A DNA stretch of 14,292 bases from Candidatus Methanophagales archaeon. GTDB lineage: Archaea; Halobacteriota; Syntropharchaeia; Alkanophagales; Methanospirareceae. How positions within the stretch are numbered: position 1 is the first letter of the stretch; each line of letters begins with the position of its first letter. The stretch spans positions 1-14,292 of the forward strand of contig JAPVWK010000048.1 of NCBI GenBank assembly GCA_028572065.1. The letters run 5' to 3'. This document shows, in pieces, positions 781 to 14,292 of this stretch. The notes under the pieces were generated by a model. It did no database searches. It saw only the letters and a list, made by a program, of their open reading frames with translations, and was not told the DNA's origin. The translations under genes were made by a program, and so were the position numbers.

Positions 781-954
781 ATGAACGAAGAAGAGAAAAC
801 AAGATGGATGAAGGATTTGCTGAGGCTACTTCAGAATATGTCTGAATTTGAGCTTGAAGAAAGGGAAGAACAGTTAGAGGAACGGTTGGAGGAAATAAAA
901 AAAGAGTTAGGTCCGTGGTTTATTGACGGTTCTCAGCTATATATGGCGGCATAA
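781..954 (+). CDS. small acidic coiled-coil hypothetical protein
   Basis: The ORF track gives 766-954 from a GTG; the first ATG is at 781 (MNEEEKTRWMKDLLRLLQNMSEFELEEREEQLEERLEEIKKELGPWF...). TATA-like TCTATATC and CTATTTATAG lie 30-70 nt upstream. No family recognised. Confidence 0.35.
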   Translation: MNEEEKTRWMKDLLRLLQNMSEFELEEREEQLEERLEEIKKELGPWFIDGSQLYMAA

Positions 955-1054
955 CTAACTCGCTATTTCGAGCAGAGAACTAAACGAAGATATTTAAATG
1001 AAAAGGAAAGATTAAAGAACTGTTATTTATACTATCAAGCGGTCAAGAAGAAAG

Positions 1055-2080
1055 ATGAACACTAATAGAATGGATATATGGATATTCACAGTGCTAACAC
1101 TCGCTTTCACGGCAGCACTCGCTTTTTCTGCTTTTGCGGTAAGCGCCGAAATGCTCGAAGTAACTGACGACTTCGGTAGGAACGTAACCCTCCCCGGGTA
1201 TTCGGAAAGAATCATCTCGTTATCGCCAACCAATACGGAAATACTATTCGCTATTGGCGCCGGTGACAGAGTCATAGGTGCAACAGATTACTGTAATTAC
1301 CCTGAAGAAGCGAAAGAAATTACGCGGGTTGGTGGCGTTTCCACGGTGAGCATAGAGAAAGTAGTAGCATCAGAGGCCGATCTCGTGCTCGGCTGCGCGT
1401 TGAACAGCAAAGAAACAGTTGAGCGGTTGACAGAGCTGAATGTAGCGGTCGTATCACTGAATCCTGTGACCATTCAGGAGATACAGGACGATATAATGCT
1501 GGTAGGACGTTTAACAGGTAAAGAAGAGAATGCTACTGCTTTAGTCGCCGATATGGCACAAAGATTAGAAGCGATAAAAGCGCGAACTGTGGACGTGAAA
1601 CGCCCGAAAGTCGCTCATATTACATGGCATGACCCGCTCTGGGTTGCAGGTGGCGGCACCGTACAGGACGAGTTGATAGAACTAGCAGGTGGCGATAATG
1701 TCTTTTCAGACAAAAAAGAGTGGGATACGGCGAGTCTGGAAGAGTTCATAGATCGCAACCCTGACGTCATTATCGTATCGGTTGGGCATGGCGTTGCGGG
1801 CATGCAGCCGTATGATTATATACTACAAGAGGAGCGGCTGAAAGTAGTGAATGCCGTTAAAAACGGTAGAGTTTACACTATAGATGCGGACATCGCGTCT
1901 CGAGCAGGACCCCGGATAGTAAACGCAACAGAGATTGTTTATGAGTGTCTGTCCGAATCGTCCGGCGATACGGAGACGCCCACACCAGAGCCTGCCGGAT
2001 TTGAAGCGGTATTAGCAGTTGCGAGTTTACTTGTGGTATTGTGCTTCTTAAGAATAAAGACAAGAAGGAATAAAAATTGA
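1055..2080 (+). CDS. ABC-transporter periplasmic (surface) substrate-binding protein, Fe-siderophore/cobalamin class (Peripla_BP_2), with C-terminal PGF-CTERM-like anchor
   Basis: Signal-peptide-like N-terminus (IWIFTVLTLAFTAALAFSAFAVSA). The core motifs RIISLSPTNTEILFAIGAGDRVIGATDYCNYP and ADLVLG are typical of BtuF/FhuD-type binding proteins. The tail is a Thr/Pro linker (GDTETPTPEP) followed by PAGFEAVLAVASLLVVLCFLRIKTRR. Confidence 0.85.
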   Translation: MNTNRMDIWIFTVLTLAFTAALAFSAFAVSAEMLEVTDDFGRNVTLPGYSERIISLSPTNTEILFAIGAGDRVIGATDYCNYPEEAKEITRVGGVSTVSIEKVVASEADLVLGCALNSKETVERLTELNVAVVSLNPVTIQEIQDDIMLVGRLTGKEENATALVADMAQRLEAIKARTVDVKRPKVAHITWHDPLWVAGGGTVQDELIELAGGDNVFSDKKEWDTASLEEFIDRNPDVIIVSVGHGVAGMQPYDYILQEERLKVVNAVKNGRVYTIDADIASRAGPRIVNATEIVYECLSESSGDTETPTPEPAGFEAVLAVASLLVVLCFLRIKTRRNKN

Positions 2081-2085
2081 TAATC

Positions 2086-2105
2086 GGACGCAGATGAACG
2101 CAGAT
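2086..2105. repeat. left inverted-repeat arm flanking the GxxExxY fragment (GGACGCAGATGAACGCAGAT)
   Basis: Its reverse complement, ATCTGCGTTCATCTGCGTCC, matches the right arm ending ATCTGCGTCC at 2301-2310. The GCAGAT/ATCTGC unit is reiterated on both sides. Confidence 0.6.
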
Positions 2106-2291
2106 AATCAGGATTTTAAATATACGGTATTGACGGAGGAGTTTATTAGAATTTTCTATCGAGTTTATAATAAACTGGGTTATGGTTTTCTGGAAAAGGT
2201 TTATGAGAATGCAATGATGATGGAACTGAATTTTGGCACGAAACCGGAAGTCAAACGTAAGGCATTTGATTTTCTGCGTAAATCTGCGTAA
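2094..2291 (+). pseudogene. truncated GxxExxY-family (PD-(D/E)XK-like) gene remnant
   Basis: The 65-aa ORF carries the family N-terminal signature (IRIFYRVYNKLGYGFLEKVYENAMMMEL, that is G..E..Y). It loses similarity after about 45 aa and stops at roughly half the family length of about 125-130 aa (length from memory). Confidence 0.6.
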
Positions 2292-2310
2292 ATCCATGTG
2301 ATCTGCGTCC
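2281..2310. repeat. right inverted-repeat arm flanking the GxxExxY fragment (AATCTGCGTAAATCCATGTGATCTGCGTCC)
   Basis: Pairs with 2086-2105. A solo ATCTGCGTAA half-site also occurs at 241-250, upstream of the 278 gene. Confidence 0.55.
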
Positions 2311-2330
2311 TAAATAGGTAGAAGTTATAC

Positions 2331-2338
2331 TTTATATA
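2331..2338 (+). promoter_or_regulatory. candidate archaeal TATA box (TTTATATA) for the radical SAM gene
   Basis: A consensus-like TTTATATA lies 69 nt upstream of the ATG at 2407. GGAAGGAG (2391-2398) follows as a Shine-Dalgarno site 8 nt before the ATG. Confidence 0.4.
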
Positions 2339-2406
2339 CAGCAAAAAAGGTATGAACGTTTAAGGATCACTGTACTACAACATTAGTACCGGAAGGAGAC
2401 ACAGTC

Positions 2407-3177
2407 ATGAATATTTACCACATGAGCTACACACAAAAATTCGTGGGTGAGAGGATGGCCATGCTGTCTTTTAAAGGCTGCAACTTCGAGTGTACAGGCT
2501 GTCTCAGGAAAAGAAACGAATGCGACCTCTATGCGGAAGAGCGGAAATACATTGATTGGAATTTAGAGAACATACTAACGGAATTGGAAGAGTTGAAGCC
2601 GCATAGGATATATCTTGGTGGCTATGAACCTACACTCGACCCGGATTTAATAATGATAATCGAACGAATCACAAAGCTCGGCGCACATATCGTATTGATG
2701 ACAAATGGGAGCAGAATAGACACGGAATATGCGAAAGACTTGAAAAAAGCGGGTGTGAACGAGATTATAATCGGTATAAAAGCATTCGATGCCGAAAAGC
2801 ATCTTTACTACACGAAAAGGAGTAACAAGCCAGTATTGGCTGCGATAAAGGACTTAGTAACGCTAGAAGACGCTTATTTCAGGTTACAGATAGAGACGGT
2901 TTTAATCCCTGGGATAAATGAGCCTGCGGATATAGAAAGTCTGGCAATCTTCATTGCACGGATAGATCCCGCGATTGCACTTTTCATTGAGCCATGGATA
3001 CCATTAGAGGGCGTGGAGTTTAAAGAACCAGAGAAACGAGATTTGATAGATGCGGTTTCTGGTGCGATGAGGCATCTATATGTTGTGTCCTATCACCCTT
3101 TGTATTCCGAGATAAAAGAGATCAGGAAAACGCCACGGAAAGCGAAATTTATTGAAATCCTGCCAAAATCATATTAA
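2407..3177 (+). CDS. radical SAM protein (activase-like, function unknown)
   Basis: CNFECTGC is the CxxxCxxC radical-SAM cluster motif near the N-terminus. A GGYEPTL glycine-rich SAM-binding segment follows. The size (256 aa) fits a small PflA-like enzyme. A good SD precedes the ATG. Confidence 0.8.
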   Translation: MNIYHMSYTQKFVGERMAMLSFKGCNFECTGCLRKRNECDLYAEERKYIDWNLENILTELEELKPHRIYLGGYEPTLDPDLIMIIERITKLGAHIVLMTNGSRIDTEYAKDLKKAGVNEIIIGIKAFDAEKHLYYTKRSNKPVLAAIKDLVTLEDAYFRLQIETVLIPGINEPADIESLAIFIARIDPAIALFIEPWIPLEGVEFKEPEKRDLIDAVSGAMRHLYVVSYHPLYSEIKEIRKTPRKAKFIEILPKSY

Positions 3178-3387
3178 CGCCTTTTCTACCGCTTCCCGGA
3201 TCAAATAACCCGCCCTATGCAGAATCGTATCGCCAATCTCACGGTCTTTCTCCATGCTCGCGGTACAGGGATAGGAATGATGAGATTCACTGGTTCGATC
3301 GTAAAGTTCTAGTTTGTTCTCAACTTCTACGCCTTCTAACTGCTTTGCCACGAACCAGGTACTCCCGCAAGGAGCACTTCTCAACAC
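3169..3387 (-). CDS. hypothetical protein, possibly the C-terminal remnant of a DUF166 (COG1810)-like gene
   Basis: 72-aa ORF starting at a GTG. It contains APCGST and HSYPCTASM ... HRAGYLIREAV, which I recall as conserved C-terminal blocks of archaeal DUF166 proteins. An adjacent 32-aa ORF in another frame (3390-3488) looks like an upstream piece of the same family. See findings. Confidence 0.35.
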   Translation of the reverse strand: MLRSAPCGSTWFVAKQLEGVEVENKLELYDRTSESHHSYPCTASMEKDREIGDTILHRAGYLIREAVEKALI

Positions 3388-3584
3388 CTCTACATGAACA
3401 ATATCTCAGATGCAATCGCTATGTCTGCATCTGGAACCTCCCGTGGTAAATACACACCCGCAGAATCTTCTATGAATACCGGAAGCATAGAAAGCTCGAG
3501 GAGCTCAAACAATCCCTTTATAATATTATCAGGTCCATTTCTTTTCAGCTGTCATAGACTCGGATTTTTGGTGTGCTTTCCTGT

Positions 3585-4529
3585 TTATTTTGAGTACATA
3601 CTCTGTTGAATGTCCTTTCCCAGCTTGCCAATAGCATCAGCACGGCAATGCCGGCAGTGAGTCATCTCTTTCACGTACTCGCGGCATTTCTCCTGAATCG
3701 CCTCTTTCTCTTGCTGTGTCGGTGGTTTAATATTCGCGAACTTGTACTGCGGGATGAGCGGGATAATATTGTGCATATAAACGCCCAGCTTACTTATCTC
3801 CTTCGCTACCTCCACTATATGCTCATCATTCACCGTAGGTATAAGAACAGTATTAACTTTTATCAGTATCTTACGTTTCACCGCCTCGCGAATGCCTTCC
3901 AATTGGTTCTTCAGCAGTATCTCCGCACCTTCTTCGCCTTTATAGCGTTTACCGTTGTAATTGACGACTGAATAGATGTCCTTACCTATCGCAGGGTCTA
4001 TAGCGTTCAGTGTAACGGTTACAGTTCCGATGTCCAACTCTTCTATCTCGTCAATCCGTTCTGGCAAAAGCAGCCCGTTCGTGCTCAGACAGCGCATCAG
4101 GTGTGGGAACTCATCCTTCACGAGCCGGAACGTCTCGAATGTCTCTTCGTTAAACAGTGGCTCGCCGGGTCCCGCAACGGCAACTACCTTAATGTAATGC
4201 ACCTTTTCCATTACATCACGTACCCGTTCTAACGCTTCCTGTGGCGTTAGCACCTTGCTCGTCACTCCGGGTCGCGACTCATTCACGCAATCGAATTTCC
4301 GTACACAGTAATTACACTGGATGTTACACTTCGGTGCCACCGCGAGATGTATTCTGCCGAAGAAATGACAGGCGTTTTCACTGAAACAAGGATGTTCACT
4401 AATCTTTCTGAGCTGCGCAGGGTCCCAGGGTACTTCTTTGCCTTCTACATTGGCAGTGGGTAAATCACCCCCCTCGACACTACCCCCCTGCATCTCAACC
4501 ATTCCCTTTTTTGATGCTACTTCACTCAT
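3585..4529 (-). CDS. nifB: NifB, radical SAM FeMo-cofactor (NifB-co) biosynthesis protein, minimal archaeal form without a NifX-like domain
   Basis: HPCFSENACHFFGRIHLAVAPKCNIQCNYCVRKFDCVNESRPGVTSKVLTPQEA closely follows the NifB signature around the CNIQCNYC cluster motif. The C-terminal HCRHCRADAIGKLG matches the conserved CxxCRADAxG block. Confidence 0.85.
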   Translation of the reverse strand: MSEVASKKGMVEMQGGSVEGGDLPTANVEGKEVPWDPAQLRKISEHPCFSENACHFFGRIHLAVAPKCNIQCNYCVRKFDCVNESRPGVTSKVLTPQEALERVRDVMEKVHYIKVVAVAGPGEPLFNEETFETFRLVKDEFPHLMRCLSTNGLLLPERIDEIEELDIGTVTVTLNAIDPAIGKDIYSVVNYNGKRYKGEEGAEILLKNQLEGIREAVKRKILIKVNTVLIPTVNDEHIVEVAKEISKLGVYMHNIIPLIPQYKFANIKPPTQQEKEAIQEKCREYVKEMTHCRHCRADAIGKLGKDIQQSMYSK

Positions 4530-4555
4530 ACGTATACTTCTCCCGATATATGAGT

Positions 4556-5227
4556 TTATAAAACATCTTTCTTGAATTCCTCAAGTCCAACTTCTTTTAT
4601 ATACCTGCCCAATCGCTTTTTTGTGTCGCAGTTCTTGTAGTAATTGATAACTCGATCAGCAAGAGCCATAGCTTCATCATCACTCAAATTCTCCGTCAGA
4701 ATTTCTGCAATCGCAGGTGCGGCACCTGCGGAACCTCCGACCACCACTTTCCAGCCCTTTGGCATACCGATGAAGCCTAAGTCTTTTATCCAGGACTCCG
4801 CACAGCTATTACTACAACCGGAAACGCCGATCTTGAACTTTGAGGGCAACTCCAACCCATGATACTTGCTATCAAATTCCAAGCCTAATTTCACCGCATC
4901 TTGCTTGCCTCTTTTACAGAACGTAGTACCCGGACAGATTTTTACGCTTCTGATACATAACCCGATAGCCGCAGCCGGTGGCATATCGAGGTCACGCCAG
5001 GCAGCGTCTATATCGCTCTCTGCTAAACCCACAATTGCTATTCGTTGTGCCGAGGTCAATTTTAACGCTGCAGCATTGTATTTCTCCGCGACATCTGCTA
5101 TTTTCCGTAGCGTACAAGGTTCGCAAATCCCGCCCGGCATCTGCGGCGCAATCGCATACGTTTCATAATCCCGCTGGACAATTGCACCTTTATCCAACAG
5201 GTCTTTCTTCTTCTCTTTTTCTTCCAT
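4556..5227 (-). CDS. small sirohaem-[4Fe-4S] sulfite/nitrite reductase-like protein (low-molecular-weight assimilatory-type, alSir-like)
   Basis: 223 aa. The cysteine pattern is C-x5-C (CPGTTFC) followed by C-x3-C (CSNSC), as in the NIR_SIR sirohaem/Fe-S site. An N-terminal NIR_SIR_ferr-like half-domain is present (YAIAPQMPGGICEPCTLRKIADVAEKY...LKLTSAQRIAIVG). The size matches the ~23 kDa Desulfovibrio-type small sulfite reductase. Confidence 0.7.
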   Translation of the reverse strand: MEEKEKKKDLLDKGAIVQRDYETYAIAPQMPGGICEPCTLRKIADVAEKYNAAALKLTSAQRIAIVGLAESDIDAAWRDLDMPPAAAIGLCIRSVKICPGTTFCKRGKQDAVKLGLEFDSKYHGLELPSKFKIGVSGCSNSCAESWIKDLGFIGMPKGWKVVVGGSAGAAPAIAEILTENLSDDEAMALADRVINYYKNCDTKKRLGRYIKEVGLEEFKKDVL

Positions 5228-5230
5228 TTT

Positions 5231-5629
5231 TTAGTTACTCCTTTCTTTATAATTCTTAATCGCTTTTTGCAACGTCCTTTTAGATAAACACGTGCAATGT
5301 ACCTTCTGTGCAGGAATACCACCCAGATAATCTATTATCTTATCTTCCTCTATCTTCTCTGCCTCTTCTAATGTCATTCCTATTATCCTTTCTGTAAGGG
5401 CAGAGCCAGACGAAAAGGCTCCTGCACAGCCTATCGCCTGGAACTTAGCCTCTTTTATCACGCCATCTTCTACATTCAAAAAAATCTCCATTGTATCGCC
5501 ACAAGGTCCCGTATATATCGCATGAGCATCTGGCTCGCTTAGCTCTCCGACATTCACTTTGTTCATATAGTACTCAATGGCTTTCTCTGAATATCCTGAC
5601 TCTTTCAACAGATCTTGCATTTCACTCAT
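5231..5629 (-). CDS. NifU N-terminal/IscU-like Fe-S cluster scaffold protein
   Basis: 132 aa with the three scaffold cysteines in the expected contexts (GPCGD, IGCAGA, KVHC) and the typical length. Confidence 0.8.
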   Translation of the reverse strand: MSEMQDLLKESGYSEKAIEYYMNKVNVGELSEPDAHAIYTGPCGDTMEIFLNVEDGVIKEAKFQAIGCAGAFSSGSALTERIIGMTLEEAEKIEEDKIIDYLGGIPAQKVHCTCLSKRTLQKAIKNYKERSN

Positions 5630-5645
5630 TTTTTAATCACACTGT

Positions 5646-5656
5646 TATTTTATTAT
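5646..5656 (-). promoter_or_regulatory. possible internal TATA-like box (ATAATAAAATA on the minus strand) for the NifU-like/Sir/NifB genes
   Basis: An AT-rich box lies about 27 nt upstream of the ATG at 5629. That ATG has no SD, unlike its neighbours, which fits a leaderless or short-leader transcript. Confidence 0.25.
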
Positions 5657-5688
5657 CGCCGTGTCTTTTTATGATTTGCTATTTTTTG

Positions 5689-6882
5689 CTAGCCGTTGAT
5701 TATACCCTGCTCCTTATGCTTATTCGCGATTCCATCTGCTAACCGATCCAATGCTTTGAACGCCTCTTCTCCTGGTACTCCTTTAACAACAACGGGCTCC
5801 AGCAGTTCTACCTTTAAATTTGGTATCATACCTGTAAGTTGTTCCACCATTCTGCTACCCCAACCGTAAGACCCGATGATAGATGCAAATTTCAGCTTTG
5901 GCCTCAACGCATTTGCGAGACAAGCCGCATAAACCACTTTCGGATGCGGTCCTACCAGAACAGTTGGAGATCCGATTACAACAGTAGCTGCATCTACTAA
6001 CGCCATCGCTAATTTACCAATATCCGGTTCTGACAGATTAAACAGCTTTACTGTTATGCCACGTTCGATCAAAGCCTCTGCGAAGTGATCTACCATCTTC
6101 TTCGTGCTGCCGTGCATTGAGATATAAGGTATAACTACCTCATTCTTCACATCGTCAGAAGCCCAATCCCTGTAAGCATTGAGAATAAAATTTGGCTCTT
6201 TATACGCGGGACCGTGACTCGGTGCTATTATATCTATTGTCAAATCGTTTAGCCGTGCTAAGTTCTTCTTTATTGTTGGCCGGAAAGGCATCATGATCTC
6301 TGCATAGTATCGCTTGGCTGCCTCATAGACTGTCGCCTCATCGGTTACAAACAAGTCGCTGGTTGCGAGATGCGAGCCAAGGAAATCGCAGGTAAAAAGC
6401 ATCCGGTCTTCTCTTAGATATGTCAGCATAGTCTCTGGCCAGTGTACCCAAGGTGCATGGACGAACTCCAGTGTTTTGTTGCCCAATGACAGCGTCATGC
6501 CATCTTCAACGGTTATGAATTTATCCTGGTGTATCAAAAGCGAATCCATAAGCAAATCCTTACATTTCGGTGTGCAGACCACCTTAGCGCCTGGATATAA
6601 CTCAAGTATCAGGGGTAAAGTACCTGAATGGTCTTGTTCGGCGTGATTGGCAATGACGTAATCTATATCTCCTGTCTCAAGTTCTTCAAGATTTCTTATT
6701 AGCACGTCCGCCATGGTCGGGTCTACAGTGTCTATCAGTGCCGTTTTTTCGCTGCCTCGTACTAAATAAGAGTTATAGCTTGTTCCGTCTGGCAGTGGGA
6801 TTAATTCATCAAATAGCCTCCGGTCCCAGTCAATTGCGCCCACTGCGTAAATTCTCGGTTTCAGTTCTCTTTTGTGACTCAT
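5689..6882 (-). CDS. flavodiiron protein 1 (metallo-beta-lactamase-like diiron domain plus flavodoxin-like domain)
   Basis: Diiron motif HAEQDH (H-x-E-x-D-H) and a C-terminal flavodoxin-like domain (VVIPYISMHGSTKKM ... IGSYGWG). Its ATG follows the rubredoxin stop directly (TAAATG). Confidence 0.9.
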   Translation of the reverse strand: MSHKRELKPRIYAVGAIDWDRRLFDELIPLPDGTSYNSYLVRGSEKTALIDTVDPTMADVLIRNLEELETGDIDYVIANHAEQDHSGTLPLILELYPGAKVVCTPKCKDLLMDSLLIHQDKFITVEDGMTLSLGNKTLEFVHAPWVHWPETMLTYLREDRMLFTCDFLGSHLATSDLFVTDEATVYEAAKRYYAEIMMPFRPTIKKNLARLNDLTIDIIAPSHGPAYKEPNFILNAYRDWASDDVKNEVVIPYISMHGSTKKMVDHFAEALIERGITVKLFNLSEPDIGKLAMALVDAATVVIGSPTVLVGPHPKVVYAACLANALRPKLKFASIIGSYGWGSRMVEQLTGMIPNLKVELLEPVVVKGVPGEEAFKALDRLADGIANKHKEQGIING

Positions 6883-7020
6883 TTAAGCCACTTCCTCAAA
6901 CGCTTCTTTACCTACACCACAGTCGGGACATACCCAGTCATCAGGTAAATCCGCAAATGCCGTTCCACTCTCTTCTTCGTCATATATATAGTCACATACA
7001 GTACATTTCCATTTTGCCAT
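6883..7020 (-). CDS. rub: rubredoxin 1 (45 aa, missed by the ORF track)
   Basis: Hand translation gives [45 protein letters not shown]. It has the two CxxC pairs and the classic rubredoxin core. AGGAGG lies 10 nt upstream of the ATG. Confidence 0.92.
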
Positions 7021-7055
7021 TTTTCTTATTCCTCCTTTTATTTTAGTACTTGCTC

Positions 7056-7125
7056 ACCGCTGAGCACGCGGAGAACGCGGAGTATCTCCCTTTGTCATCT
7101 CAGCGTTCTCCATGTTCTCGGCGGT
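7056..7125. repeat. imperfect palindromic intercistronic element, copy 1 (flavodoxin 1 / rubredoxin 1 spacer)
   Basis: The arms are ACCGCTGAGCACGCGGAGAACG (7056-7077) and CGTTCTCCATGTTCTCGGCGGT (7104-7125). By hand pairing they form about a 22-bp stem with a few mismatches or wobbles and a 26-nt loop. Confidence 0.75.
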
Positions 7126-7131
7126 AAATAT

Positions 7132-7563
7132 CTATTTTATCTTCTCCGCAATCTTCTTCCCGAACTCGCGGCATTCTTCCAGCCCCTTCTCGGTTGGTCT
7201 TCGTTTTATTCTCAGTCCAGGTTCTATCACGTCCATCCCTGCGAGATTGTTCATCGTTTCTGTCAATATCTCTATGGATTCGCCACTCCAGCCGTAAGAC
7301 CCGAATGCCGCACCAACCTTGCCTTTCAAGTCCGTATTATCCATCACGAAAAGAAAAGTCTTCATCGCTGCTATCAGACTACGAACATAAGTCGGAGACC
7401 CGAGCACGACCGCATCCACGTTCTTGAGGTCATCCACATTTGCATGTGCCGCTTTTTTCAGTTCGACTTCAACTCCCGCCTTTTTCAAGCCCGTTTCGAT
7501 TGCTTTTGCCATCATTTCGGTATTACCCGAACGAGTTTCATATATTAATATTGCTTTTGCCAT
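7132..7563 (-). CDS. short-chain flavodoxin 1
   Basis: 143 aa with the FMN phosphate loop (YETRSGNTE), VVLGSPTY and AAFGSYGWSGE. GGAGGA lies 8 nt upstream of the ATG. Confidence 0.85.
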   Translation of the reverse strand: MAKAILIYETRSGNTEMMAKAIETGLKKAGVEVELKKAAHANVDDLKNVDAVVLGSPTYVRSLIAAMKTFLFVMDNTDLKGKVGAAFGSYGWSGESIEILTETMNNLAGMDVIEPGLRIKRRPTEKGLEECREFGKKIAEKIK

Positions 7564-7614
7564 TTTTTATTCCTCCAGTTTTGTTTCATCTTGTCATTGC
7601 CATATTTCGAATTT

Positions 7615-7675
7615 ACCGCGGAAAACGCTGAGTTCACAGAGAAAAAATCTCTGCGTCCTCCGCGAACTCTGCGGT
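7615..7675. repeat. imperfect palindromic intercistronic element, copy 2 (inverted orientation; FDP 2 / flavodoxin 1 spacer)
   Basis: The arms are ACCGCGGAAAACGCTGAGTTCACAGAG and CTCTGCGTCCTCCGCGAACTCTGCGGT. The right arm matches the reverse complement of the copy 1 left arm at 22 of 27 positions by hand alignment. Confidence 0.65.
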
Positions 7676-7700
7676 TAATCTGTTTTTACCTCTCTTCTAC

Positions 7701-8882
7701 CTACTCCTTTTTGATGACCGCTCCTAACTCCTTACCTGCTTCTTTTACTTTATCCAACTCCCCTTCATCCGGGATATACTGAATTTTAACGCCTTCAACA
7801 GGCATGTCCCATCCAAGGTCATTCATGATTGTTTCCATCTCTTTTACTGCCTGCCCTCCCCAGCCATAAGACCCGAATGCAAAACCAATTCTGTTTTTTG
7901 GGCGCAATCCCTTCAGATACGTGAGGAACGCTCCTACCGATGGAAAAATACCGTTGTTCAAAGTGGGGGAGCCAACCAGTATAGCTTTTGAACGGAGGAC
8001 ATCAGCCATTATATCCGAGATATGAAGCGTTTTTAAGTTACGCATGGTAACAGGAATACCTGCCTTTTCCAGACCAGCCCGTAAGCTATGTGCCATCTTC
8101 TCTGTTGAGCCCCACATGGTATCATAAATGATGACCGCCCGGTTCTCTGCCGTGTTGGTTGCCCACTTCTGATAGGCTTCTAAAATCTTTGGTAAATACG
8201 TTCGCCAGATTATTCCGTGTCCCGGTGCAACTATCTCTAGGTCCAGTCCTGAAAGTGCATCCAGCGCTTTTTTTACCTGGTCGCCATAGGGAAAGACAAT
8301 GTTGGCATAATATTTCGCAGCTTCTTCGTGAAGAACGTCCCACCCGATCTCATCATCAAAGCGTTCAGGCGTAGCAATATGCTGCCCAAATGCGTCATTA
8401 GAGAGTAGTATCTTCTCTTCCGGTAGATAGGTAACCATGTTATCCGGCCAGTGTACCATAGGCGTGAGGAAGAACTGCATGGTTCGTTTACCGATGTTTA
8501 TAGTATCTCCGGATTTCACTACTACAAAGTCCCAATCCTCTTTATAATGCCTACGCAAACCTTTTTCACCATTAGGACTAGTTACTACTTTCGCATCAGG
8601 CGCAAGCGCTAGGATTTTTGCTAAATTGCCTGAATGGTCCATCTCCACATGGTTAGATACCACATAATCAATTTTAGAGGGGTCAACCACTTCGCTGATG
8701 CGGGCTAACATCTCATCAAACAGATAGTGCTTTACCGTATCTACTAATACAATCTTTTCGTCCATGATGAGGTATGCGTTGTACGTGGCACCTCTTTGCG
8801 TCAGGTAACCATGGAAATTACGCACATCCCAGTCTATACCTCCGACCCAGTAGATTCCTGGTTTTATCTCTATGGGCTCCAT
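7701..8882 (-). CDS. fprA: flavodiiron protein 2, FprA-like (methanogen F420H2-oxidase-type subfamily)
   Basis: The start is set at the internal Met (MEPIEIKPGIYWVGGIDWDVRNFHGY...), because the upstream part of the 431-aa track ORF overlaps rubredoxin 2. Diiron motif HVEMDH and flavodoxin domain (VIIYDTMWGSTEKMA ... FGSYGWGG) are present. The overall pattern resembles methanogen FprA, from memory. Confidence 0.9.
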   Translation of the reverse strand: MEPIEIKPGIYWVGGIDWDVRNFHGYLTQRGATYNAYLIMDEKIVLVDTVKHYLFDEMLARISEVVDPSKIDYVVSNHVEMDHSGNLAKILALAPDAKVVTSPNGEKGLRRHYKEDWDFVVVKSGDTINIGKRTMQFFLTPMVHWPDNMVTYLPEEKILLSNDAFGQHIATPERFDDEIGWDVLHEEAAKYYANIVFPYGDQVKKALDALSGLDLEIVAPGHGIIWRTYLPKILEAYQKWATNTAENRAVIIYDTMWGSTEKMAHSLRAGLEKAGIPVTMRNLKTLHISDIMADVLRSKAILVGSPTLNNGIFPSVGAFLTYLKGLRPKNRIGFAFGSYGWGGQAVKEMETIMNDLGWDMPVEGVKIQYIPDEGELDKVKEAGKELGAVIKKE

Positions 8883-8883
8883 A

Positions 8884-9021
8884 CTAACCTTCCTTCTCGA
8901 ATGCTGCTTTGTCTGCACCACAGACGGGACATTCCCAATCGTCAGGTAAATCGTCAAATGCCGTTCCCGCTTCTTCTTCGTCATAGATATAGCCACAGAC
9001 GGTACATATCCATTTTGCCAT
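8884..9021 (-). CDS. rub: rubredoxin 2 (45 aa, missed by the ORF track)
   Basis: Hand translation gives [51 protein letters not shown] lies upstream. Its TAG stop is 1 nt from the FDP 2 ATG. Confidence 0.92.
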
Positions 9022-9050
9022 TTCTCATCTACCTCCTATTAAGTTGGCTT

Positions 9051-9119
9051 ACCGCTGAGCACGCAGAGAACGTAAAGAGCTTTCATTGTCAACTCTGCGG
9101 TCTCCATGTTCTCAGCGGC
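9051..9119. repeat. imperfect palindromic intercistronic element, copy 3 (flavodoxin 2 / rubredoxin 2 spacer)
   Basis: The arms are ACCGCTGAGCACGCAGAGAACG (9051-9072) and CGGTCTCCATGTTCTCAGCGGC (9098-9119). Against copy 1, the left arm matches at 21 of 22 positions and the right arm at 19 of 22. Confidence 0.75.
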
Positions 9120-9129
9120 AAATAAAAAT

Positions 9130-9561
9130 TTATTTTATCCTCCCCGCAATCTTCTTCCCGAATTCTTTGCACTCCTTTTCTCTTGTAACTACTTCCATGC
9201 CTTTCATCTTCAAATCCGGCTCAATCATGTCCATCTCAAAGATATGCTTCATCGTATCGCTCATCATCTCGACAGCTTCACCACTAAAGCCATAAGTACC
9301 AAATGCCGCCCCGACTTTTCCTTTCAAGTCCACTTTCTTCATCTTGAATAAGAACATCTTCATCGAGGAGATCATGTCATGGTGGTAGGTGGGACTTCCG
9401 AGAACAACAGCATCCACGCCTTCGAGGTCTTCCTCCTTTGCTGCCAGGACCTTTTTCAATTCCACGTCCACTCCTGCCCCTTCCATGCCTACAACGATTG
9501 CTTTTGCCATCGTTTCCGTATAGCCATAATTGGTATCATAAATTACTATTGCTTTTGCCAT
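9130..9561 (-). CDS. short-chain flavodoxin 2
   Basis: 143 aa, the same length as flavodoxin 1. A gapless hand count gives 83 of 143 identical residues. Motifs: YDTNYGYTE, VVLGSPTY, AAFGTYGFSGE. AGGAGG lies upstream. Confidence 0.85.
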   Translation of the reverse strand: MAKAIVIYDTNYGYTETMAKAIVVGMEGAGVDVELKKVLAAKEEDLEGVDAVVLGSPTYHHDMISSMKMFLFKMKKVDLKGKVGAAFGTYGFSGEAVEMMSDTMKHIFEMDMIEPDLKMKGMEVVTREKECKEFGKKIAGRIK

Positions 9562-9643
9562 TTTTTCATATCACCTCCTATTTTTTTAGATTGGTTCTCC
9601 GTTGAATGCAAAGATAGCTACCTTCTTGTTCATCCCCTTACGC

Positions 9644-10162
9644 TCAACCCTCCACAGATGCCGCAGGTGGCGTAAATACCCGTGCTGCCAGTTCTTTGTC
9701 TACCATGAGCAAACCATTACCGTCTTCTCCCACGAGTTTCAACCTGGCAATGATTTCATTATCGTTACCTTCCTCTTCTATCTGTTCAGTAACGTACCAT
9801 TGCAAGAAGATATTCGTAGCGTGGTCCTTCTCCACGATTGCAAGGTCCACGAGCTCATTGATGCTCTTCGTAATGAACTTCTCGTGCACCAGAGTCTTCT
9901 CAAACATATCTAATGGCGACTCAAACTCTGTCGCGGGCTCTTCAATCGCTGCTAGCTTTACCTGCCCACCCTGATCGTTGATATAGCCGTAGATTTTCAT
10001 CGCGTGCGTCATCTCTTCCTGGTACTGCACCATGAACCAGTTGGCAAATCCCTTCAGTCCTGTGTACGAGCTGTAGGCGGACATCGCCATATACAGATAC
10101 GCTGAATACATCTCCTTGTTAAGTTGTGTATTCAGCGCTTCCTGCATCTTTTCGCTTAGCAT
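9644..10162 (-). CDS. ftn: ferritin (non-haem, Ftn type)
   Basis: The start is set at MLSEKMQEALNTQLNKEMYSAYLYMAMS, which avoids overlap with the peroxiredoxin gene; the track start at 10204 lies inside that gene. Ferroxidase-centre residue context (E..Y, QEEMTH, WYV.EQ.EE) and ~170 aa are typical. Confidence 0.88.
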   Translation of the reverse strand: MLSEKMQEALNTQLNKEMYSAYLYMAMSAYSSYTGLKGFANWFMVQYQEEMTHAMKIYGYINDQGGQVKLAAIEEPATEFESPLDMFEKTLVHEKFITKSINELVDLAIVEKDHATNIFLQWYVTEQIEEEGNDNEIIARLKLVGEDGNGLLMVDKELAARVFTPPAASVEG

Positions 10163-10173
10163 ATTTATTTTCC

Positions 10174-10824
10174 TTACCCCTGCTTTTTGTGACAGAACCA
10201 CCAATCATAGCAGTCGTATTGCTTGACTCGTTCTTTTGCGGTTTGCTCATCCGATGCCGGTGGTATTATAACCTCATCTCCGATCAACTCGTTGTTTGGC
10301 CAATTTGCAGGTATCGCCACGCCGTATTCATCATTGGTTTTAAGCCCACGTACCATTCGCAAGATTTCATCCATGTTCCTGCCGAGTTCCTGCGGATAAT
10401 AAATCATAGCTCTCATTATTCCCTGCGGGTCAACAGCAAATACCGCCCTAACCGTATTCGTGCCCTTGTTGGGATGTATAAGCCCCAGCATCTTGGCTAC
10501 TCGACCTGTGTCGTCCGCGATAACAGGAAACTTTATCTCCACGTCCAGATTATCCTTTATCCATTCCACCCATTTTATGTGGCTGAATACCTGGTCTATG
10601 CTCAATCCGATCAGCTCGCAGTCGAGTTCCTTAAAAGCCTCAAATCGTCTTTGAAAAGCCACGAACTCGGTCGTGCACACCGGAGTAAAATCCGCTGGAT
10701 GACTGAACAGGACAAACCATTTGCCCTTGTACTCTTCTGGCAGTTTCTTCTTTCCATGTGTCGTTTGTACTTCCATTTCCGGGAATTCTTCCCCAATCAG
10801 GGGCATACCTACTTCTTCTTCCAT
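10174..10824 (-). CDS. peroxiredoxin (archaeal Prx6-like / Aeropyrum-type thiol peroxidase)
   Basis: [20 protein letters not shown] contains the peroxidatic Cys. The C-terminal DCYDWWFC gives the Cys-x5-Cys pair seen in archaeal Prx. AGGAGG lies 10 nt upstream of the ATG at 10824. The Met at 10806 ([10 protein letters not shown]) is the alternative start and matches homologue N-termini. Confidence 0.9.
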
Positions 10825-10841
10825 TTTTCATATTCCTCCTA

Positions 10842-11192
10842 TTACATTTCTATACAGTTTTGCCACACACCGTGGACGTTGCAATACGCGAGTGCACAGA
10901 ACGCTTTGAATTCCGGTACGGGCACCTGGAACCTGACGTTTGGATTGGTATAACCCGCTGCGAACGCAGCCCGTCCGAGAAAAACCACCTGTCCGCCGTC
11001 TTTCTTTACGCCATACAGTTCTATCCACGCGATATGGTGCTCCGCGGTGTTAGGATGCGGCACGTCCTTACCCACTACTACTCGTACGACATCCACGTTC
11101 TCTTCTCCTCGTCCCTTGCCTGTCTCAATATAAGGGACGTGTTTCTCTTTTCCTTCGGCTTCTGCGCCTTTTAACAAATCTCCAAAATCCAT
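10842..11192 (-). CDS. sor: superoxide reductase, 1Fe-SOR (neelaredoxin type)
   Basis: Iron-site motifs GKEKHVP, HPNTAEHHI and CNVHGVW are present. The 116-aa length and order closely parallel the Pyrococcus SOR sequence as I recall it. Confidence 0.9.
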   Translation of the reverse strand: MDFGDLLKGAEAEGKEKHVPYIETGKGRGEENVDVVRVVVGKDVPHPNTAEHHIAWIELYGVKKDGGQVVFLGRAAFAAGYTNPNVRFQVPVPEFKAFCALAYCNVHGVWQNCIEM

Positions 11193-11211
11193 TTTTATTT
11201 ACATTACCTCC

Positions 11212-12567
11212 TTATTTTCCGTTCCTTCTAACCAAATAAGCCACAACTAACAGGCTTAATAACGCAAAGATACTTTCAAAACCTGGAACTCCTTCGTCTG
11301 GTGCTTTCTTACCTAGTTCTATCGTGTCTTCTGCACCTGCCATCTCTATCACCGGTGCCACGACATTACCCTTCCCGAAGAGCTCATCCAGGAACTTTTG
11401 CGATGCAGACCGGTAGTTCAACTTTGCTTCCACTGTAATTGGACCATTTACACCTACGGGTATCGCAAAATTATACTTCTCCACTCTGGTATCCTTGGGG
11501 AGTATCCGGTTATCAGAGAGCACGGATTCCGACTCCCATACTTTTACCGTTGGGTTTCCAGACGCATCTCCAAGCACTACATGGTACATCACGGCATCGG
11601 GGTCCACTTCGCCATCAGAATCAAGTCCACCTACGTGATAAAATTCTTTGCCCGAGGCATCCTTCGCCATAATCTCTATCCAGGCCTCTCTCGCCTCTGT
11701 AAGTCCGGTTGGCAACTTATGCCCCGCACCCACGTTCGTGACTTTTACCGTAATTTCAGCTTCCGAAACCTTCTTCTCGGCTTCCAGCACGAGCGTTGCC
11801 GCGGATTTCAACCGTTCCTCTGCCATTTGCTGATGCACTTCTGAACCAATAACACCGGTTACCGCTGCGTTTCCGCCTACAAAGTAATGTGTGTAAATGT
11901 GGTCCCTATCTGGTCCGATCCCTGAAGCCTTACCTGGATTTGCCTCGAAATGCGTAATACCAGGCGTCATGTGGCAGTCCTGACATTGTGTAGTCGAGTT
12001 GTACGGTCCTTCTTTCCACTCGGTATATGTCGTCTCGATTGGAATTCCGGTCACGGGATGGTTGACATCGTGACACATCCCGCAGAACTCTGATTTCGTG
12101 TGAAGGTCTGATAACATACTACCGTGAGATGGCGATTTCGAATCGTCATACGGTCCTCGTTTAAATCCGTCCAAAGCGACCATAAAAGCACCGTTTCCTA
12201 TACCCGTGGATTTATTGACGTTATGACAGAAATCGCACTGTAGCCCCTTCTTCGATACCTCACTTATGTTTTCATGTCCAATTGGAGGGACTTCACCCGA
12301 GAGGACACCGATTGGCGTGTGACACCGCGCACAGTAGGTGTCGGTTAGACCCTCCGTCTCGTTTGAAGCCATCTCTTCTTCCGCCAAATAAACCGGGTCG
12401 GTGTATGCTATTGAGTGCATCGAGCCATCCCATTGATTGTATATTTCGGCATGACAGCCCTTGCATACTGCTGGATCATCGAAATCAGAAGATTCAATAG
12501 CTCCTGCAACCATCGAACCTGCTAATAGAGTACAGACAATCGCAACTATTGGTATTATACCTCTCAT
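11212..12567 (-). CDS. secreted pentahaem c-type cytochrome with C-terminal PGF-CTERM archaeosortase signal
   Basis: There is an N-terminal signal peptide. The five CxxCH motifs are CKGCH (aa 35), CARCH (79), CDFCH (111), CGMCH (162) and CQDCH (195). A large non-haem C-terminal domain carries AGHKLPTG. The tail is VPGFESIFALLSLLVVAYLVRRNGK. The start overlaps the upstream stop (ATGA). Confidence 0.85.
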   Translation of the reverse strand: MRGIIPIVAIVCTLLAGSMVAGAIESSDFDDPAVCKGCHAEIYNQWDGSMHSIAYTDPVYLAEEEMASNETEGLTDTYCARCHTPIGVLSGEVPPIGHENISEVSKKGLQCDFCHNVNKSTGIGNGAFMVALDGFKRGPYDDSKSPSHGSMLSDLHTKSEFCGMCHDVNHPVTGIPIETTYTEWKEGPYNSTTQCQDCHMTPGITHFEANPGKASGIGPDRDHIYTHYFVGGNAAVTGVIGSEVHQQMAEERLKSAATLVLEAEKKVSEAEITVKVTNVGAGHKLPTGLTEAREAWIEIMAKDASGKEFYHVGGLDSDGEVDPDAVMYHVVLGDASGNPTVKVWESESVLSDNRILPKDTRVEKYNFAIPVGVNGPITVEAKLNYRSASQKFLDELFGKGNVVAPVIEMAGAEDTIELGKKAPDEGVPGFESIFALLSLLVVAYLVRRNGK

Positions 12568-12845
12568 TCCACCATTTCCTCCACCTCTTTCTTACCCTTT
12601 TCCAGTTCCTCGACCTGCTCCTTATCTTGCATTAGAAGCAGCGCCTGAAATTCGCCCATGTGTGTCTTCTCTTCTTTCGCTATATCCAGCAGAGCCGCTT
12701 TGACTTCTTTTCGCTCTGCCATCGCCGCGAGCTGCTCGTACAAATTCACAGCGTCCAATTCCGCGATCATACCGACACGCAATATCTCTCTATCCCTATT
12801 CTCTTTACTCACCTTTTCCAAATCTATTGGTAATTCGCTTAACAT
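12564..12845 (-). CDS. EncFtn-type ferritin-like mini-protein (encapsulin-associated ferritin family), no recognisable encapsulin-targeting tail
   Basis: ILRVGMIAELDAVNLYEQLAAMAERKEVKAALLDIAKEEKTHMGEFQALLLMQDKEQVEELEKG closely parallels the N-terminal ferritin-like domain of the Pyrococcus furiosus encapsulin as I recall it (ILRLAIIAELDAINLYEQMA...DVAREEKAHVGEFMALLL.LDPEQ). The E...EExxH metal ligands are present. AGGGGG SD lies upstream. Confidence 0.7.
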   Translation of the reverse strand: MLSELPIDLEKVSKENRDREILRVGMIAELDAVNLYEQLAAMAERKEVKAALLDIAKEEKTHMGEFQALLLMQDKEQVEELEKGKKEVEEMVE

Positions 12846-12973
12846 GTTTCACACCCCCTAAAATTATCCATCAACAATGCCGTATTTCCGGCCAATACAA
12901 ATGCAGGGTCTGTTATCACAAAATATGTGGTTCCCTCAAAATCCGCTGCTACCCTATTTTCTACCATCAGCAT
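12839..12973 (-). CDS. unannotated 44-aa ORF (hypothetical small protein)
   Basis: Hand translation gives MLMVENRVAADFEGTTYFVITDPAFVLAGNTALLMDNFRGCETC. AAGGGGGA lies 5 nt upstream of the ATG. The stop overlaps the EncFtn-like start (ACATGTTAA). It is below the ORF-track size cutoff and no family is recognised. Confidence 0.3.
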   Translation of the reverse strand: MLMVENRVAADFEGTTYFVITDPAFVLAGNTALLMDNFRGCETC

Positions 12974-13027
12974 TCAATCCCCCTTTTAGATATAACTTCT
13001 TTCGCCATATTAGTTTTTCGGTTTTTA

Positions 13028-13630
13028 TTATGGATGTTTATCAGGCGGATGACAGGTCCAACAGGAATCTTCTTTTACATCCATATCGTGGTCGTTGTGA
13101 CATGTCGCGCACTCGAAACCTGTATAATCCGGACTCTCGTAGCTTTTATATTCACCGATCTTGTGTGCCGTGTGTTCGATCGTGGCGTGGCATTTAAAGC
13201 ATGAAATTGTAGTATCCGTGATTTTTTCCGACGGTCTCTTGTGTTCGCTGTGGCATTCCATACAGTATTCGTTCTTTGGCGATGCCGGCGGCTTATTCTC
13301 CACTTGTTCAGCCATATCGTCATAAGTTCCGCCTAAACTCTTACCTTCTGTCATACCTTCGGCCATGCCTTCAACGTGGTGAAGCGCTTCCCCGATATAC
13401 AGGAACATCTCGGGCTTATGCGGCTTATGGCAGTCGTGACAGTCCACTTCCGCATGCGATGTGACCATCAAAGAGTCATAAAAAGGCTGCATCTCATGAC
13501 AGTTGGCCCCGCAACTTTCTGGTTTGTGCATCTCATGCTCCATGACTGGTACCATAAATGCCGCACCACCGATGACTCCAACGGTCACCACTACGACCAG
13601 AGCAATAATTATCTTCTCACCGGTTTCCAT
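13028..13630 (-). CDS. membrane-anchored hexahaem c-type cytochrome, NapC/NirT/NrfH-like N-terminal module
   Basis: It has one N-terminal TM helix (IIIALVVVVTVGVIGGAAFMV). SCGANCHEMQPFYDSLMVTSHAEVDCHDCHKPH parallels the NapC block (FCISCHEM..Y.......H......C.DCH.PH). Four further CxxCH motifs follow (CMECH, CFKCH, CATCH, CWTCH). A strong SD is present (AAGGAGGG). Confidence 0.8.
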   Translation of the reverse strand: METGEKIIIALVVVVTVGVIGGAAFMVPVMEHEMHKPESCGANCHEMQPFYDSLMVTSHAEVDCHDCHKPHKPEMFLYIGEALHHVEGMAEGMTEGKSLGGTYDDMAEQVENKPPASPKNEYCMECHSEHKRPSEKITDTTISCFKCHATIEHTAHKIGEYKSYESPDYTGFECATCHNDHDMDVKEDSCWTCHPPDKHP

Positions 13631-13751
13631 ACTCGGCCCTCCTTATTCTTGTCACCTTCGCTTCTTCCACCAATATTACCCTCTCTGTTTTCCCCATCTC
13701 CCTCACCTTTTTGGTTTTGTTCCAACTATGTAATTAGTTTAAAGTTGTGAC

Positions 13752-13759
13752 TATAAAAA
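13752..13759 (-). promoter_or_regulatory. candidate TATA box (TTTTTATA on the minus strand) for the cytochrome/ROS operon
   Basis: This is the only good TATA-like box in the 266-nt spacer upstream of the 13630 start. It implies a 5' UTR of roughly 95 nt. Confidence 0.3.
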
Positions 13760-13896
13760 TGTTGTCAGTATTTTAGTTTATATCCCAAAAGTAATGAGCC
13801 AAAGGAAGCCGACCAACGAGACTGCATGAGCAAAGTAGTAGACTTTATCGCCCTTTTTTGGTTCATAGCTCTAAAGTGGGTTGACGTTAACATCCA

Positions 13897-14292
13897 TCAT
13901 CGGCGGTAGTAACATGGTCCCGGTCTCATTATAGAAATCCCGGTTACTTCGACTTCGATAACCCCTTCCGGGGCACTATCATGTTTTTTGGTGAGCATAA
14001 AGTTTCTGCCCAGTTCATAAATTGGGCCATCGGTATGGTATCTTCCTATTCCTTTTATTTGGTATCCTTTTTCTTCTTCTGGATCCCAGTAGGAGATGCG
14101 AACGTAATTATCCTCTATTAGATCCTTCTCGTTCAGTTTCGTAAAATCACCAATGAGCAGAACCGTTTGGTCATTGCGAACCTTCTTCCAAAATACTTGA
14201 ACGGCAGTTTGATTTCTTTCTTTACCCGCGGTTTCAAATACAACTGAATCCACCTTTTCAAATATCTTTTTCAATTCATCTGGAATTATCAT
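13897..14292 (-). CDS. pyridoxamine 5'-phosphate oxidase-like FMN-binding split-barrel protein
   Basis: The 131-aa ORF has its ATG as the last three bases of the window, so the true start could lie beyond it. The pattern VVFETAGKERNQTAVQVFWKKVRNDQTVLLIGDF...NYVRISYWDPEEEKGYQIKGIGRY fits small PNPOx-family proteins. Confidence 0.6.
   Translation of the reverse strand: MIIPDELKKIFEKVDSVVFETAGKERNQTAVQVFWKKVRNDQTVLLIGDFTKLNEKDLIEDNYVRISYWDPEEEKGYQIKGIGRYHTDGPIYELGRNFMLTKKHDSAPEGVIEVEVTGISIMRPGPCYYRR

Follow-up and report, generated by a model that had tools for sequence, protein, structure and literature searches.

We describe a pentahaem c-type cytochrome encoded in a 14,292-nucleotide stretch of DNA from a Candidatus Methanophagales archaeon (GenBank assembly GCA_028572065.1, contig JAPVWK010000048.1, positions 1 to 14,292; this whole stretch is hereafter called the window). 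The protein has 451 amino acids (aa), and its gene (11212..12567, minus strand) lies among genes for the removal of reactive oxygen species. Sequence comparison makes it near certain that the protein is the ortholog, in group 1 of the anaerobic methanotrophic archaea (ANME-1), of the cytochrome MA3739 of Methanosarcina acetivorans. It is likewise near certain that the gene is a member of an oxidant-defence cluster conserved in cytochrome-bearing Halobacteriota. We give roughly even chances to the composite reading presented here, in which this MA3739 ortholog in its conserved setting performs outward-facing oxidant chemistry and a nearby gene for a NapC-like membrane cytochrome (200 aa, 13028..13630, minus strand) is a separate neighbour. 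The specific chemistry proposed for the pentahaem protein within that reading is more tentative. What is new is an ANME-1 member of a known, functionally blank kind of cytochrome, together with its lineage-specific NapC-like neighbour. Both cytochrome open reading frames (ORFs) are real and not products of chance, because both belong to families of conserved proteins, with at least 2,470 homologs of the 451-aa protein among 8,000 scored candidates and 41 homologs of the 200-aa protein.

The genomic setting of the pentahaem gene was surveyed by a scan of GTDB species genomes, which yielded 80 loci (49 archaeal and 31 bacterial) whose flanks were searched by tblastn with the window proteins. A homolog of superoxide reductase (SOR), flavodiiron protein (FDP), peroxiredoxin (Prx), ferritin or EncFtn was present within 10 kb in 40 of the 49 archaeal loci, the exceptions being mostly short contigs, compared with 1 of the 31 bacterial loci (Fisher p = 7e-13). 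The linkage was seen in ANME-1, Syntrophoarchaeum, Methanoperedens, and Methanosarcinaceae. The pentahaem gene has this place in nearly all methane archaea with cytochromes, and the conserved cluster combines SOR, FDP of the F420H2-oxidase type, rubrerythrin or Prx, and ferritin. In ANME-1, the pentahaem gene is translationally coupled to the gene for an EncFtn-like protein and followed by closely spaced SOR, Prx, and ferritin genes. The order in Ca. Syntrophoarchaeum is rubrerythrin, FMN_red, a 75-aa ORF, rubredoxin, flavodoxin, pentahaem cytochrome, a 52-aa ORF, SOR, ferritin, a 73-aa ORF, EncFtn, Prx, and FDP. In Ca. Methanoperedens, the FDP gene is divergent from the pentahaem gene and a rubrerythrin gene is nearby. 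Methanosarcina sp. T3 has the order desulforedoxin, two DUF2180 proteins, CMD, SOR, a 55-aa ORF, pentahaem cytochrome, FMN_red, flavoprotein, rubrerythrin, and FDP, and Methanococcoides has a similar one, with rubrerythrin and FDP downstream. The small ORFs beside the pentahaem gene in Methanosarcina and Syntrophoarchaeum were considered as membrane subunits and ruled out.

The link to M. acetivorans rests on both sequence and gene order. Over its full length (100% coverage), the 451-aa protein has 46% identity to the 90%-identity cluster containing M. acetivorans AAM07092/Q8TJP0 (MA3739). MA3739 is the sole five-haem cytochrome of the M. acetivorans genome (PMC6703419), and the genes MA4664/MA3734-3743 have been described as a putative oxidative stress operon (PMC3729527). 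The Methanosarcina order in our survey (locus L081) fits this operon at three anchors, namely MA3736 (CMD), MA3739 (five-haem cytochrome), and MA3743 (FprA), as annotated in Table S1 of PMC6703419. The stress-defence company of the pentahaem gene, which the first-pass annotation had read from the window, is conserved in the 40 archaeal loci and in the operon of MA3739.

We then consider the protein itself. It begins with a signal-like segment and carries exactly five CxxCH motifs, at residues 35, 79, 111, 162, and 195. Its C-terminal part contains an immunoglobulin (Ig)-like domain, a GAGHKLPTG loop (residues 280-288), and a PGF-CTERM segment at residues 427-448 (VPGFESIFALLSLLVVAYLVRRNGK), complete with PGF motif, transmembrane helix, and basic tail, which scores 32.7 with PF18204 (cut-off 18.8) and 19.5 with TIGR04126, under the cut-off of 24.5. 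These motifs establish a predicted extracytoplasmic, outward-facing protein held by a lipid or membrane anchor, in agreement with the signal peptide, five haem motifs, and outer-face anchor named in the first-pass annotation. In Pfam, the protein matches only a c554-type family at the N-terminus (PF13435) and PGF-CTERM. The NCBIfam model NF040886 (ExtKL) aligns to residues 32-390 with 56.4 bits, below its cut-off of 250. The closest relatives are Methanophagales/ANME-1 proteins with 93-95% identity, which identifies the window as DNA of ANME-1.

Profile and structure searches show that the 451-aa protein belongs to the c552/MccSep superfamily, which has a five-haem cap and an Ig-like stem whose GHxxPTG loop points towards haem 2. 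A profile of 13 homologs, searched against the Protein Data Bank (PDB) with hmmsearch, matched 5ZE8, the low-potential pentahaem cytochrome c552 of T. tepidum, over the whole length in three collinear stretches (E 3e-21). MccSep (9WT8) was matched more weakly than 5ZE8, and matches to NrfA, MccA, and cytochrome c554 were weak. The AlphaFold2 model (predicted local distance difference test, pLDDT, 86; predicted template-modelling score 0.82) consists of an alpha-helical cap and a beta-sandwich stem. Its top Foldseek match in the PDB was again 5ZE8 (E 1e-21, template-modelling score 0.65/0.75). This was the sole whole-length match, and the remaining ones covered the Ig-like domain only.

MccSep offers a guide to the haem ligands. 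In G. sulfurreducens, it is a periplasmic polysulfide reductase in which haems 1, 3, 4, and 5 are bis-His-ligated, haem 2 is ligated by His and Cys239, and a selenocysteine (Sec325) after the GHSIPDG loop of the Ig domain attacks the substrate (bioRxiv 10.1101/2025.11.18.688581). Conservation was scored over 70 homologs of the 451-aa protein. All of them keep the five CxxCH motifs, and only four other histidines (H51, H148, H227, and H283) are invariant. The loop GAGH283KLPTG is followed by Leu289, a position that is L, V or I in 70/70 homologs. At the site of the Cys-Cys pair of MccSep, the loop reads G-I-P-I-E178-T-T-Y181-T-E-W184 and the Cys-Cys insertion is absent. In the alignment of the 70 homologs, no sixth ligand for haem 2 (C79xxC82H83) is invariant, and the nearest candidates in the loop are H170 (93% conserved) and E/D178 (acidic in 63/70); this ligand argument is drawn from alignment and conservation. 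E178 was also considered as a catalytic acid, and the idea was dropped because the position is acidic in 63/70 and not invariant. The protein shares the architecture of MccSep without either of the defining catalytic residues and, judged by these, is not a MccSep/ExtKL member.

A profile search of 1.84 billion representatives returned 8,268 clusters at E <= 1e-3 and 1,474 at E <= 1e-30. Among the best 150 relatives, almost none has a Cys in the loop from haem 4 to haem 5, and the residue after the PTG loop, in the motifs recovered, is mostly aliphatic or small and never Cys. The Cys/Sec-less type predominates among these closest relatives of the 451-aa protein. The protein also has no CxxCK motif, and the match of the profile to NrfA (1QDB) has an E-value of 0.27 over ~50 residues only. 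The first-pass annotation had described the protein as unlike NrfA and had assumed that it lies outside the characterised enzyme families. Both statements are upheld; judged by the defining residues, the protein is not an NrfA and falls in no enzyme family of characterised function.

A mechanism can be proposed from these features. Four haems would act as bis-His wires, with H51, H148, H227, and H283 as distal ligands. By analogy with MccSep, electrons would enter at the exposed haem 1 and reach haem 2 along the bis-His haems. Haem 2 would be the likely reaction or ligand-binding site, because it lacks an invariant sixth ligand and the loop that carries the Cys residues in MccSep carries E/D178 and H170 here. 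H2O2 or O2 would be the substrates most in keeping with the neighbouring SOR, Prx, FDP, rubrerythrin, and ferritin genes, and the protein would complement the cytoplasmic SOR/Prx/FDP set. An outward-facing oxidant reductase is plausible.

A different substrate would be expected if the protein acted on sulfur or nitrogen compounds, reducing polysulfide/S0, sulfite, NO or hydroxylamine in the manner of MccSep, MccA, NrfA, and cytochrome c554, and guarded the cell against sulfide, sulfite or nitrosative stress. The superfamily relative MccSep is a polysulfide reductase, the weak profile matches to NrfA, MccA, and c554 and the PF13435 match at the N-terminus point the same way, and a small NIR_SIR protein is encoded downstream in the same gene string. 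Moreover, FDPs of some organisms reduce NO. However, neither Sec nor Cys follows the GHxxPTG loop, the protein has no Cys as distal ligand and no CxxCK, and the neighbouring SOR, Prx, rubrerythrin, and ferritin act specifically on species derived from O2. We consider this alternative improbable.

The NapC-like protein of 200 aa has one N-terminal hydrophobic helix (approximately residues 3-30; hydropathy windows over residues 1-31 exceed 1.6), behind which lies a multihaem domain on the extracytoplasmic side. It contains five CxxCH motifs (at residues 64, 123, 144, 174, and 190) and one CX3CH motif (C40GANCH, within the CX3CH-E-M stretch C40-M47), which makes six haem sites provided that the CX3CH motif also binds haem. 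The protein matches the NapC/NirT family PF03264 (32.7, cut-off 24.1) and reaches 52.1 bits with the NrfH equivalog TIGR03153, far below the cut-off of 134.2. The single transmembrane helix, the NapC/NirT signature, and the hexahaem count given in the first-pass annotation all agree with these results. Profile alignment to D. vulgaris NrfH (2J7A_C) covers residues 17-147, comprising the transmembrane helix and four haems (E 3e-6). The first haem motif of the family is an invariant C-x3-C-H-E-M, one residue longer than the CXXCHXM that characterises NrfH, and the quinol-site function of the motif may be kept. The two extra C-terminal haems resemble c7/c3 units. The AlphaFold2 model is poor (pLDDT 63, helix at 3-34) and a Foldseek search with it gave no match; the likeness to NrfH is one of sequence profiles.

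The NapC-like family is narrow. The 41 homologs were found among 5.8 billion proteins, and the few that were named or checked for context are all from ANME-1/Methanophagales. Copies with 55-73% identity (~16 loci) all lie in the order (AsnC), Yip1, NapC-like, CcmF-like haem lyase, hypothetical protein, and 214-aa multihaem cytochrome. At most ANME-1 loci (L086, L087, L093-L097, and L101-L107), the NapC-like gene is convergent with the CcmF-like gene (PF01578), whose product could be a dedicated lyase for the CX3CH site, by analogy with NrfE and CXXCK. The copies with at least 78% identity sit upstream of the EncFtn-pentahaem genes (in the window, L002, L004, L005, L089, L091, L092, and L100). 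A neighbour-joining tree places these stress-linked copies in one shallow clade nested within the CcmF-linked diversity. In L006 (1550-1728), L115, and L008 (9411-9637), only NapC-like fragments are found between a 131-aa gene and the EncFtn-like gene, and the EncFtn, pentahaem, SOR, Prx, and ferritin genes are intact, so that the remnant is a decaying pseudogene. The shallow, nested clade and the decay in sister genomes indicate that the position of the NapC-like gene in the window is derived, recent, and dispensable, the ancestral position being next to Yip1, CcmF-like, and other multihaem cytochrome genes. A third context is provided by a 90%-identical copy (L090, 1338-1937) between a Pyr_redox_2 fragment and SufC/SufB genes, which means either that the gene has moved within the clade or that the metagenome contig is chimeric.

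These data bear on the proposal of the first-pass annotation that the two cytochromes form a quinol-oxidising module like NrfH-NrfA. In its dedicated form, the NapC-like hexahaem and the pentahaem protein would be a quinol:oxidant reductase of two subunits, encoded on one transcript at the front of the stress operon. The two genes do lie on the same strand, separated by a spacer and one small gene, in the window, L002, L004, L005, L089, L091, and L092, the 200-aa protein is NrfH-like, and the five-haem arrangement of MccSep superimposes on the core five haems of, for example, nitrite reductase (bioRxiv 10.1101/2025.11.18.688581). However, the pairing is limited to the one shallow clade, with the ancestral CcmF-like/multihaem context elsewhere, and beyond that clade the NapC-like gene is not linked to the pentahaem gene. 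Every other lineage carries the pentahaem gene with no NapC-like gene beside it, the NapC-like gene has decayed in L006/L115 and L008 beside an otherwise intact cluster, the L090 copy has Pyr_redox_2 and SufCB genes as neighbours, and the spacer contains a conserved promoter-like element, described below. An obligate NrfH/NrfA-like pair is therefore unlikely, and we regard the dedicated module as improbable. The first-pass annotation had expected both cytochromes to keep to stress genes across orthologous loci; this is true of the pentahaem gene, which stays with SOR/Prx/FDP, and by that annotation's own measure the claim falls for the NapC-like gene, which is normally found beside CcmF-like and multihaem genes.

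We favour instead the composite reading, in which the NapC-like protein plausibly feeds the pentahaem protein and is not required for it. The 200-aa protein would be a quinol dehydrogenase akin to NrfH with two additional haems, serving in ANME-1 as a general link from the membrane quinone pool to extracytoplasmic cytochromes. In one shallow clade, its gene would have been relocated or copied beside the stress cluster, probably with a transcript of its own. In this clade, the NrfH-like hexahaem could supply electrons from the quinol pool, and elsewhere another donor would have to serve.

The spacer between the NapC-like and EncFtn-like genes is 69-182 nt long at the stress-linked loci and carries a conserved element resembling an archaeal B recognition element and TATA box (BRE/TATA). 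In the window, the spacer measures 182 nt (13027-12846), and the candidate element CGAAAAACTAATATGG lies directly 3' of the NapC-like stop codon (13005..13020, minus strand). A strict TATA regular expression missed the element; alignment of the spacers revealed it as CGAAAAA(T/C)TAATATGG, directly after the NapC-like stop (window 13005-13020). The spacers of L002, L004, L005, L089, L091, L092, and L008 all keep the element, that of L008 despite the decayed NapC-like gene. Given this likeness to an archaeal BRE/TATA box, the EncFtn-pentahaem-SOR-Prx-ferritin unit is probably served by a promoter separate from that of the NapC-like gene. The 182-nt spacer matched nothing in Rfam and its RNA fold is unremarkable (z = 0.15); a riboswitch or a structured leader was considered and rejected. 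An insert of ~100 nt (12846-12950, minus strand) is present in the spacers of the window, L002, and L006 and not in those of L004, L005, L089, L091, L092, and L008; it gave no signal of RNA structure.

Expression data for MA3739 have been read in another way. MA3739 is up 4.1-fold under respiration of anthraquinone-2,6-disulfonate (AQDS), an induction that the authors took as related to extracellular electron transfer, and MA3736, 3737, 3740, 3742, and 3743 are also up, with logFC of 0.75-1.9 (PMC6703419). MA3739 and five neighbours rise together, so the whole cluster moves together. MA3739 is also higher in cells grown by interspecies electron transfer and up 80% in an mmcA deletion strain. 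On these grounds, the pentahaem protein could be a non-catalytic carrier of an extracellular electron-transfer network (a relay between membrane carriers and S-layer or partner cytochromes, a redox capacitor or a redox sensor), with its place in the cluster reflecting co-regulation under redox imbalance. A strain lacking MA3739, however, was unchanged in AQDS reduction, in direct interspecies electron transfer, and in Fe(0) uptake, so that in the tests done MA3739 is not an extracellular-electron-transfer cytochrome. The synteny with SOR/FDP is kept across ANME-1/Methanophagales, Syntrophoarchaeum, Methanoperedens, and Methanosarcinaceae, and the only characterised member of the superfamily is an enzyme with its active site at haem 2. 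We hold the carrier role to be rather unlikely, though somewhat less so than the two alternatives above.

Several of the points that favour such a carrier, among them the authors' interpretation of the AQDS induction, weigh against oxidant reduction by the pentahaem protein, and others join them. Haem 2 might be His/His-ligated through H170, or otherwise ligated, which would make the protein a plain electron carrier. The bacterial orthologs, which are 43-52% identical to the 451-aa protein and have the same invariant residues, lack stress-gene neighbours, and the chemistry of the family need not concern oxygen; clustering of the neighbours of 30 of them revealed no recurrent partner and no adjacent NrfH-like gene. 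We found no characterised Cys/Sec-less member of the superfamily and no activity data for any. The promoter call is made on a short AT-rich motif, and transcription could read through from the NapC-like gene. A search of the literature accessible to us for a link between an MA3739-type cytochrome and oxidative stress or oxidant defence found none.

The remaining genes of the window complete the picture. From 13630 to 5689, the minus strand encodes the NapC-like, EncFtn-like, and pentahaem proteins, SOR, Prx, and ferritin, and then flavodoxin, rubredoxin, and FDP twice, in agreement with the genes named in the first-pass annotation. The EncFtn/EncB-like protein is a small cytoplasmic ferritin-like protein of 93 aa (12564..12845, minus strand, as for all genes that follow unless stated; Pfam and NCBIfam) whose gene separates the two cytochrome genes, which are not adjacent. 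It is followed, beyond the pentahaem gene, by a neelaredoxin-type SOR of 116 aa (10842..11192; PF01880, E 5e-25; TIGR00332), a 1-Cys Prx of 216 aa (10174..10824; PF00578, PF10417; NF009668, 368 bits), and a ferritin (9644..10162, read from the ATG at 10162, although a TTG at 10204 could also be the start). The first module comprises a flavodoxin of 143 aa (9130..9561; Pfam), a rubredoxin of 45 aa (8884..9021; identified by its CxxC...CxxC sequence) that abuts the FDP gene, and the FDP (7701..8882; Pfam), whose likely start is Met39 of the listed ORF. The GTG-started long N-terminus of that 431-aa ORF overlaps the rubredoxin gene and is probably not translated. The second module consists of a flavodoxin of 143 aa (7132..7563; Pfam), a rubredoxin of 45 aa (6883..7020) abutting the second FDP gene, and an FDP of 397 aa (5689..6882; Pfam). 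Both rubredoxins escape an ORF threshold of 60 aa and were located separately.

The spacing of these genes only partly matches the first-pass annotation, which had described them as packed and the two cytochrome genes as co-transcribed with the stress genes. The EncFtn-like stop and the pentahaem start overlap by 4 nt, and the gaps of 19 nt (pentahaem-SOR), 17 nt (SOR-Prx), and 11 nt (Prx-ferritin, from ATG 10162) are as reported. The 54-nt gap was not found; the 182-nt spacer stands upstream of the EncFtn-like gene, and the ferritin and the flavodoxin-rubredoxin-FDP modules are spaced 82-137 nt apart. Given the length of that spacer and the BRE/TATA-like element in it, co-transcription is doubtful for the NapC-like gene.

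Other features were noted in the window. The gene string ends (3585-5629, minus strand) with genes for a NifU-like protein, the small sulfite-reductase-like NIR_SIR protein (223 aa), and a NifB-like radical SAM protein. A radical SAM homolog also lies directly 3' of the pentahaem ortholog in Methanoperedens loci (L013, L014, L084, and L010), and the radical SAM gene may be a second conserved neighbour of the pentahaem gene. On the plus strand (1055-2080), a Peripla_BP_2 substrate-binding protein of the iron/cobalamin type carries a PGF-like C-terminal anchor PEPAGFEAVLAVASLLVVLCFLRIKTRRNKN and is a probable second archaeosortase substrate of the window. At 1-85 on the minus strand, Rfam matched group II intron domains D1-D4 (RF02012, 36.4 bits; gathering score 34), cut by the end of the window.

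Strict anaerobes with many low-potential surface cytochromes should form extracellular reactive oxygen species when oxygen intrudes. To our knowledge, neither methanogens nor ANME have an established extracytoplasmic component of oxidant defence. A five-haem surface protein retained in an SOR/FDP cluster across four archaeal groups is an obvious candidate for this role. We tentatively suggest that MA3739-type cytochromes form a new class of haem enzyme outside the cytoplasm. At the cell surface, they would reduce H2O2 or O2 with electrons from the membrane quinone or methanophenazine pool, supplied in this clade through the NrfH-like hexahaem. If true, methanogens, methanotrophs, and alkane-oxidising archaea would have an additional, outward-facing branch of oxidant defence, and the large Cys/Sec-less part of the c552/MccSep superfamily would gain its first function. 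The published inductions of MA3739 (AQDS, interspecies electron transfer) may then be a stress response and not a sign of electron-transfer machinery. The existing M. acetivorans deletion strain, so far examined for extracellular electron transfer only, makes the hypothesis directly testable. The NrfH-like CX3CH protein next to a CcmF-like lyase is, for its part, a candidate general quinol:cytochrome c oxidoreductase of ANME-1, a step left open in comparative genomics of ANME (PMC9012536).

Comparison with known systems sets the limits of these assignments. The closest is MA3739 itself, which shares five CxxCH motifs and a C-terminal anchor with the 451-aa protein and whose gene, as in the window cluster, keeps company with SOR and FDP genes, lying between SOR and FDP (FprA) with flavoproteins and rubrerythrin nearby. 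The Methanosarcina cluster differs in having desulforedoxin, two DUF2180 proteins, a CMD-type disulfide reductase, Isf, and rubrerythrin where the window has EncFtn, Prx, and ferritin, and in having no NapC-like gene nearby. The NrfH-NrfA and CymA-type quinol:cytochrome c oxidoreductases resemble the 200-aa protein in the transmembrane helix, the tetrahaem layout, and the C..CH-x-M at haem 1, and NrfH-NrfA also in the proximity to a pentahaem gene. Unlike NrfH, the 200-aa protein has a CX3CH first motif and two added C-terminal haems; unlike NrfA, its 451-aa neighbour lacks CxxCK, and the two genes are not co-conserved. The c552 of T. tepidum has the same five-haem cap, Ig-like domain, and H-x-x-P-T-G loop as the 451-aa protein, at ~20% identity, with a Cys aligned to E178; it is a soluble periplasmic protein of a purple sulfur bacterium without PGF-CTERM, whereas the window protein has that anchor. 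MccSep/ExtKL (9WT8) shares with the 451-aa protein the order of the five haems, aligned counterparts of the four distal histidines, and an Ig-like stem loop that reaches the distal side of haem 2. It differs in the position of Sec325, which is Leu289 in the 451-aa protein, in the Cys239-Cys240 insertion that provides its haem-2 ligand, and in being a soluble periplasmic tetramer where the archaeal protein is anchored.

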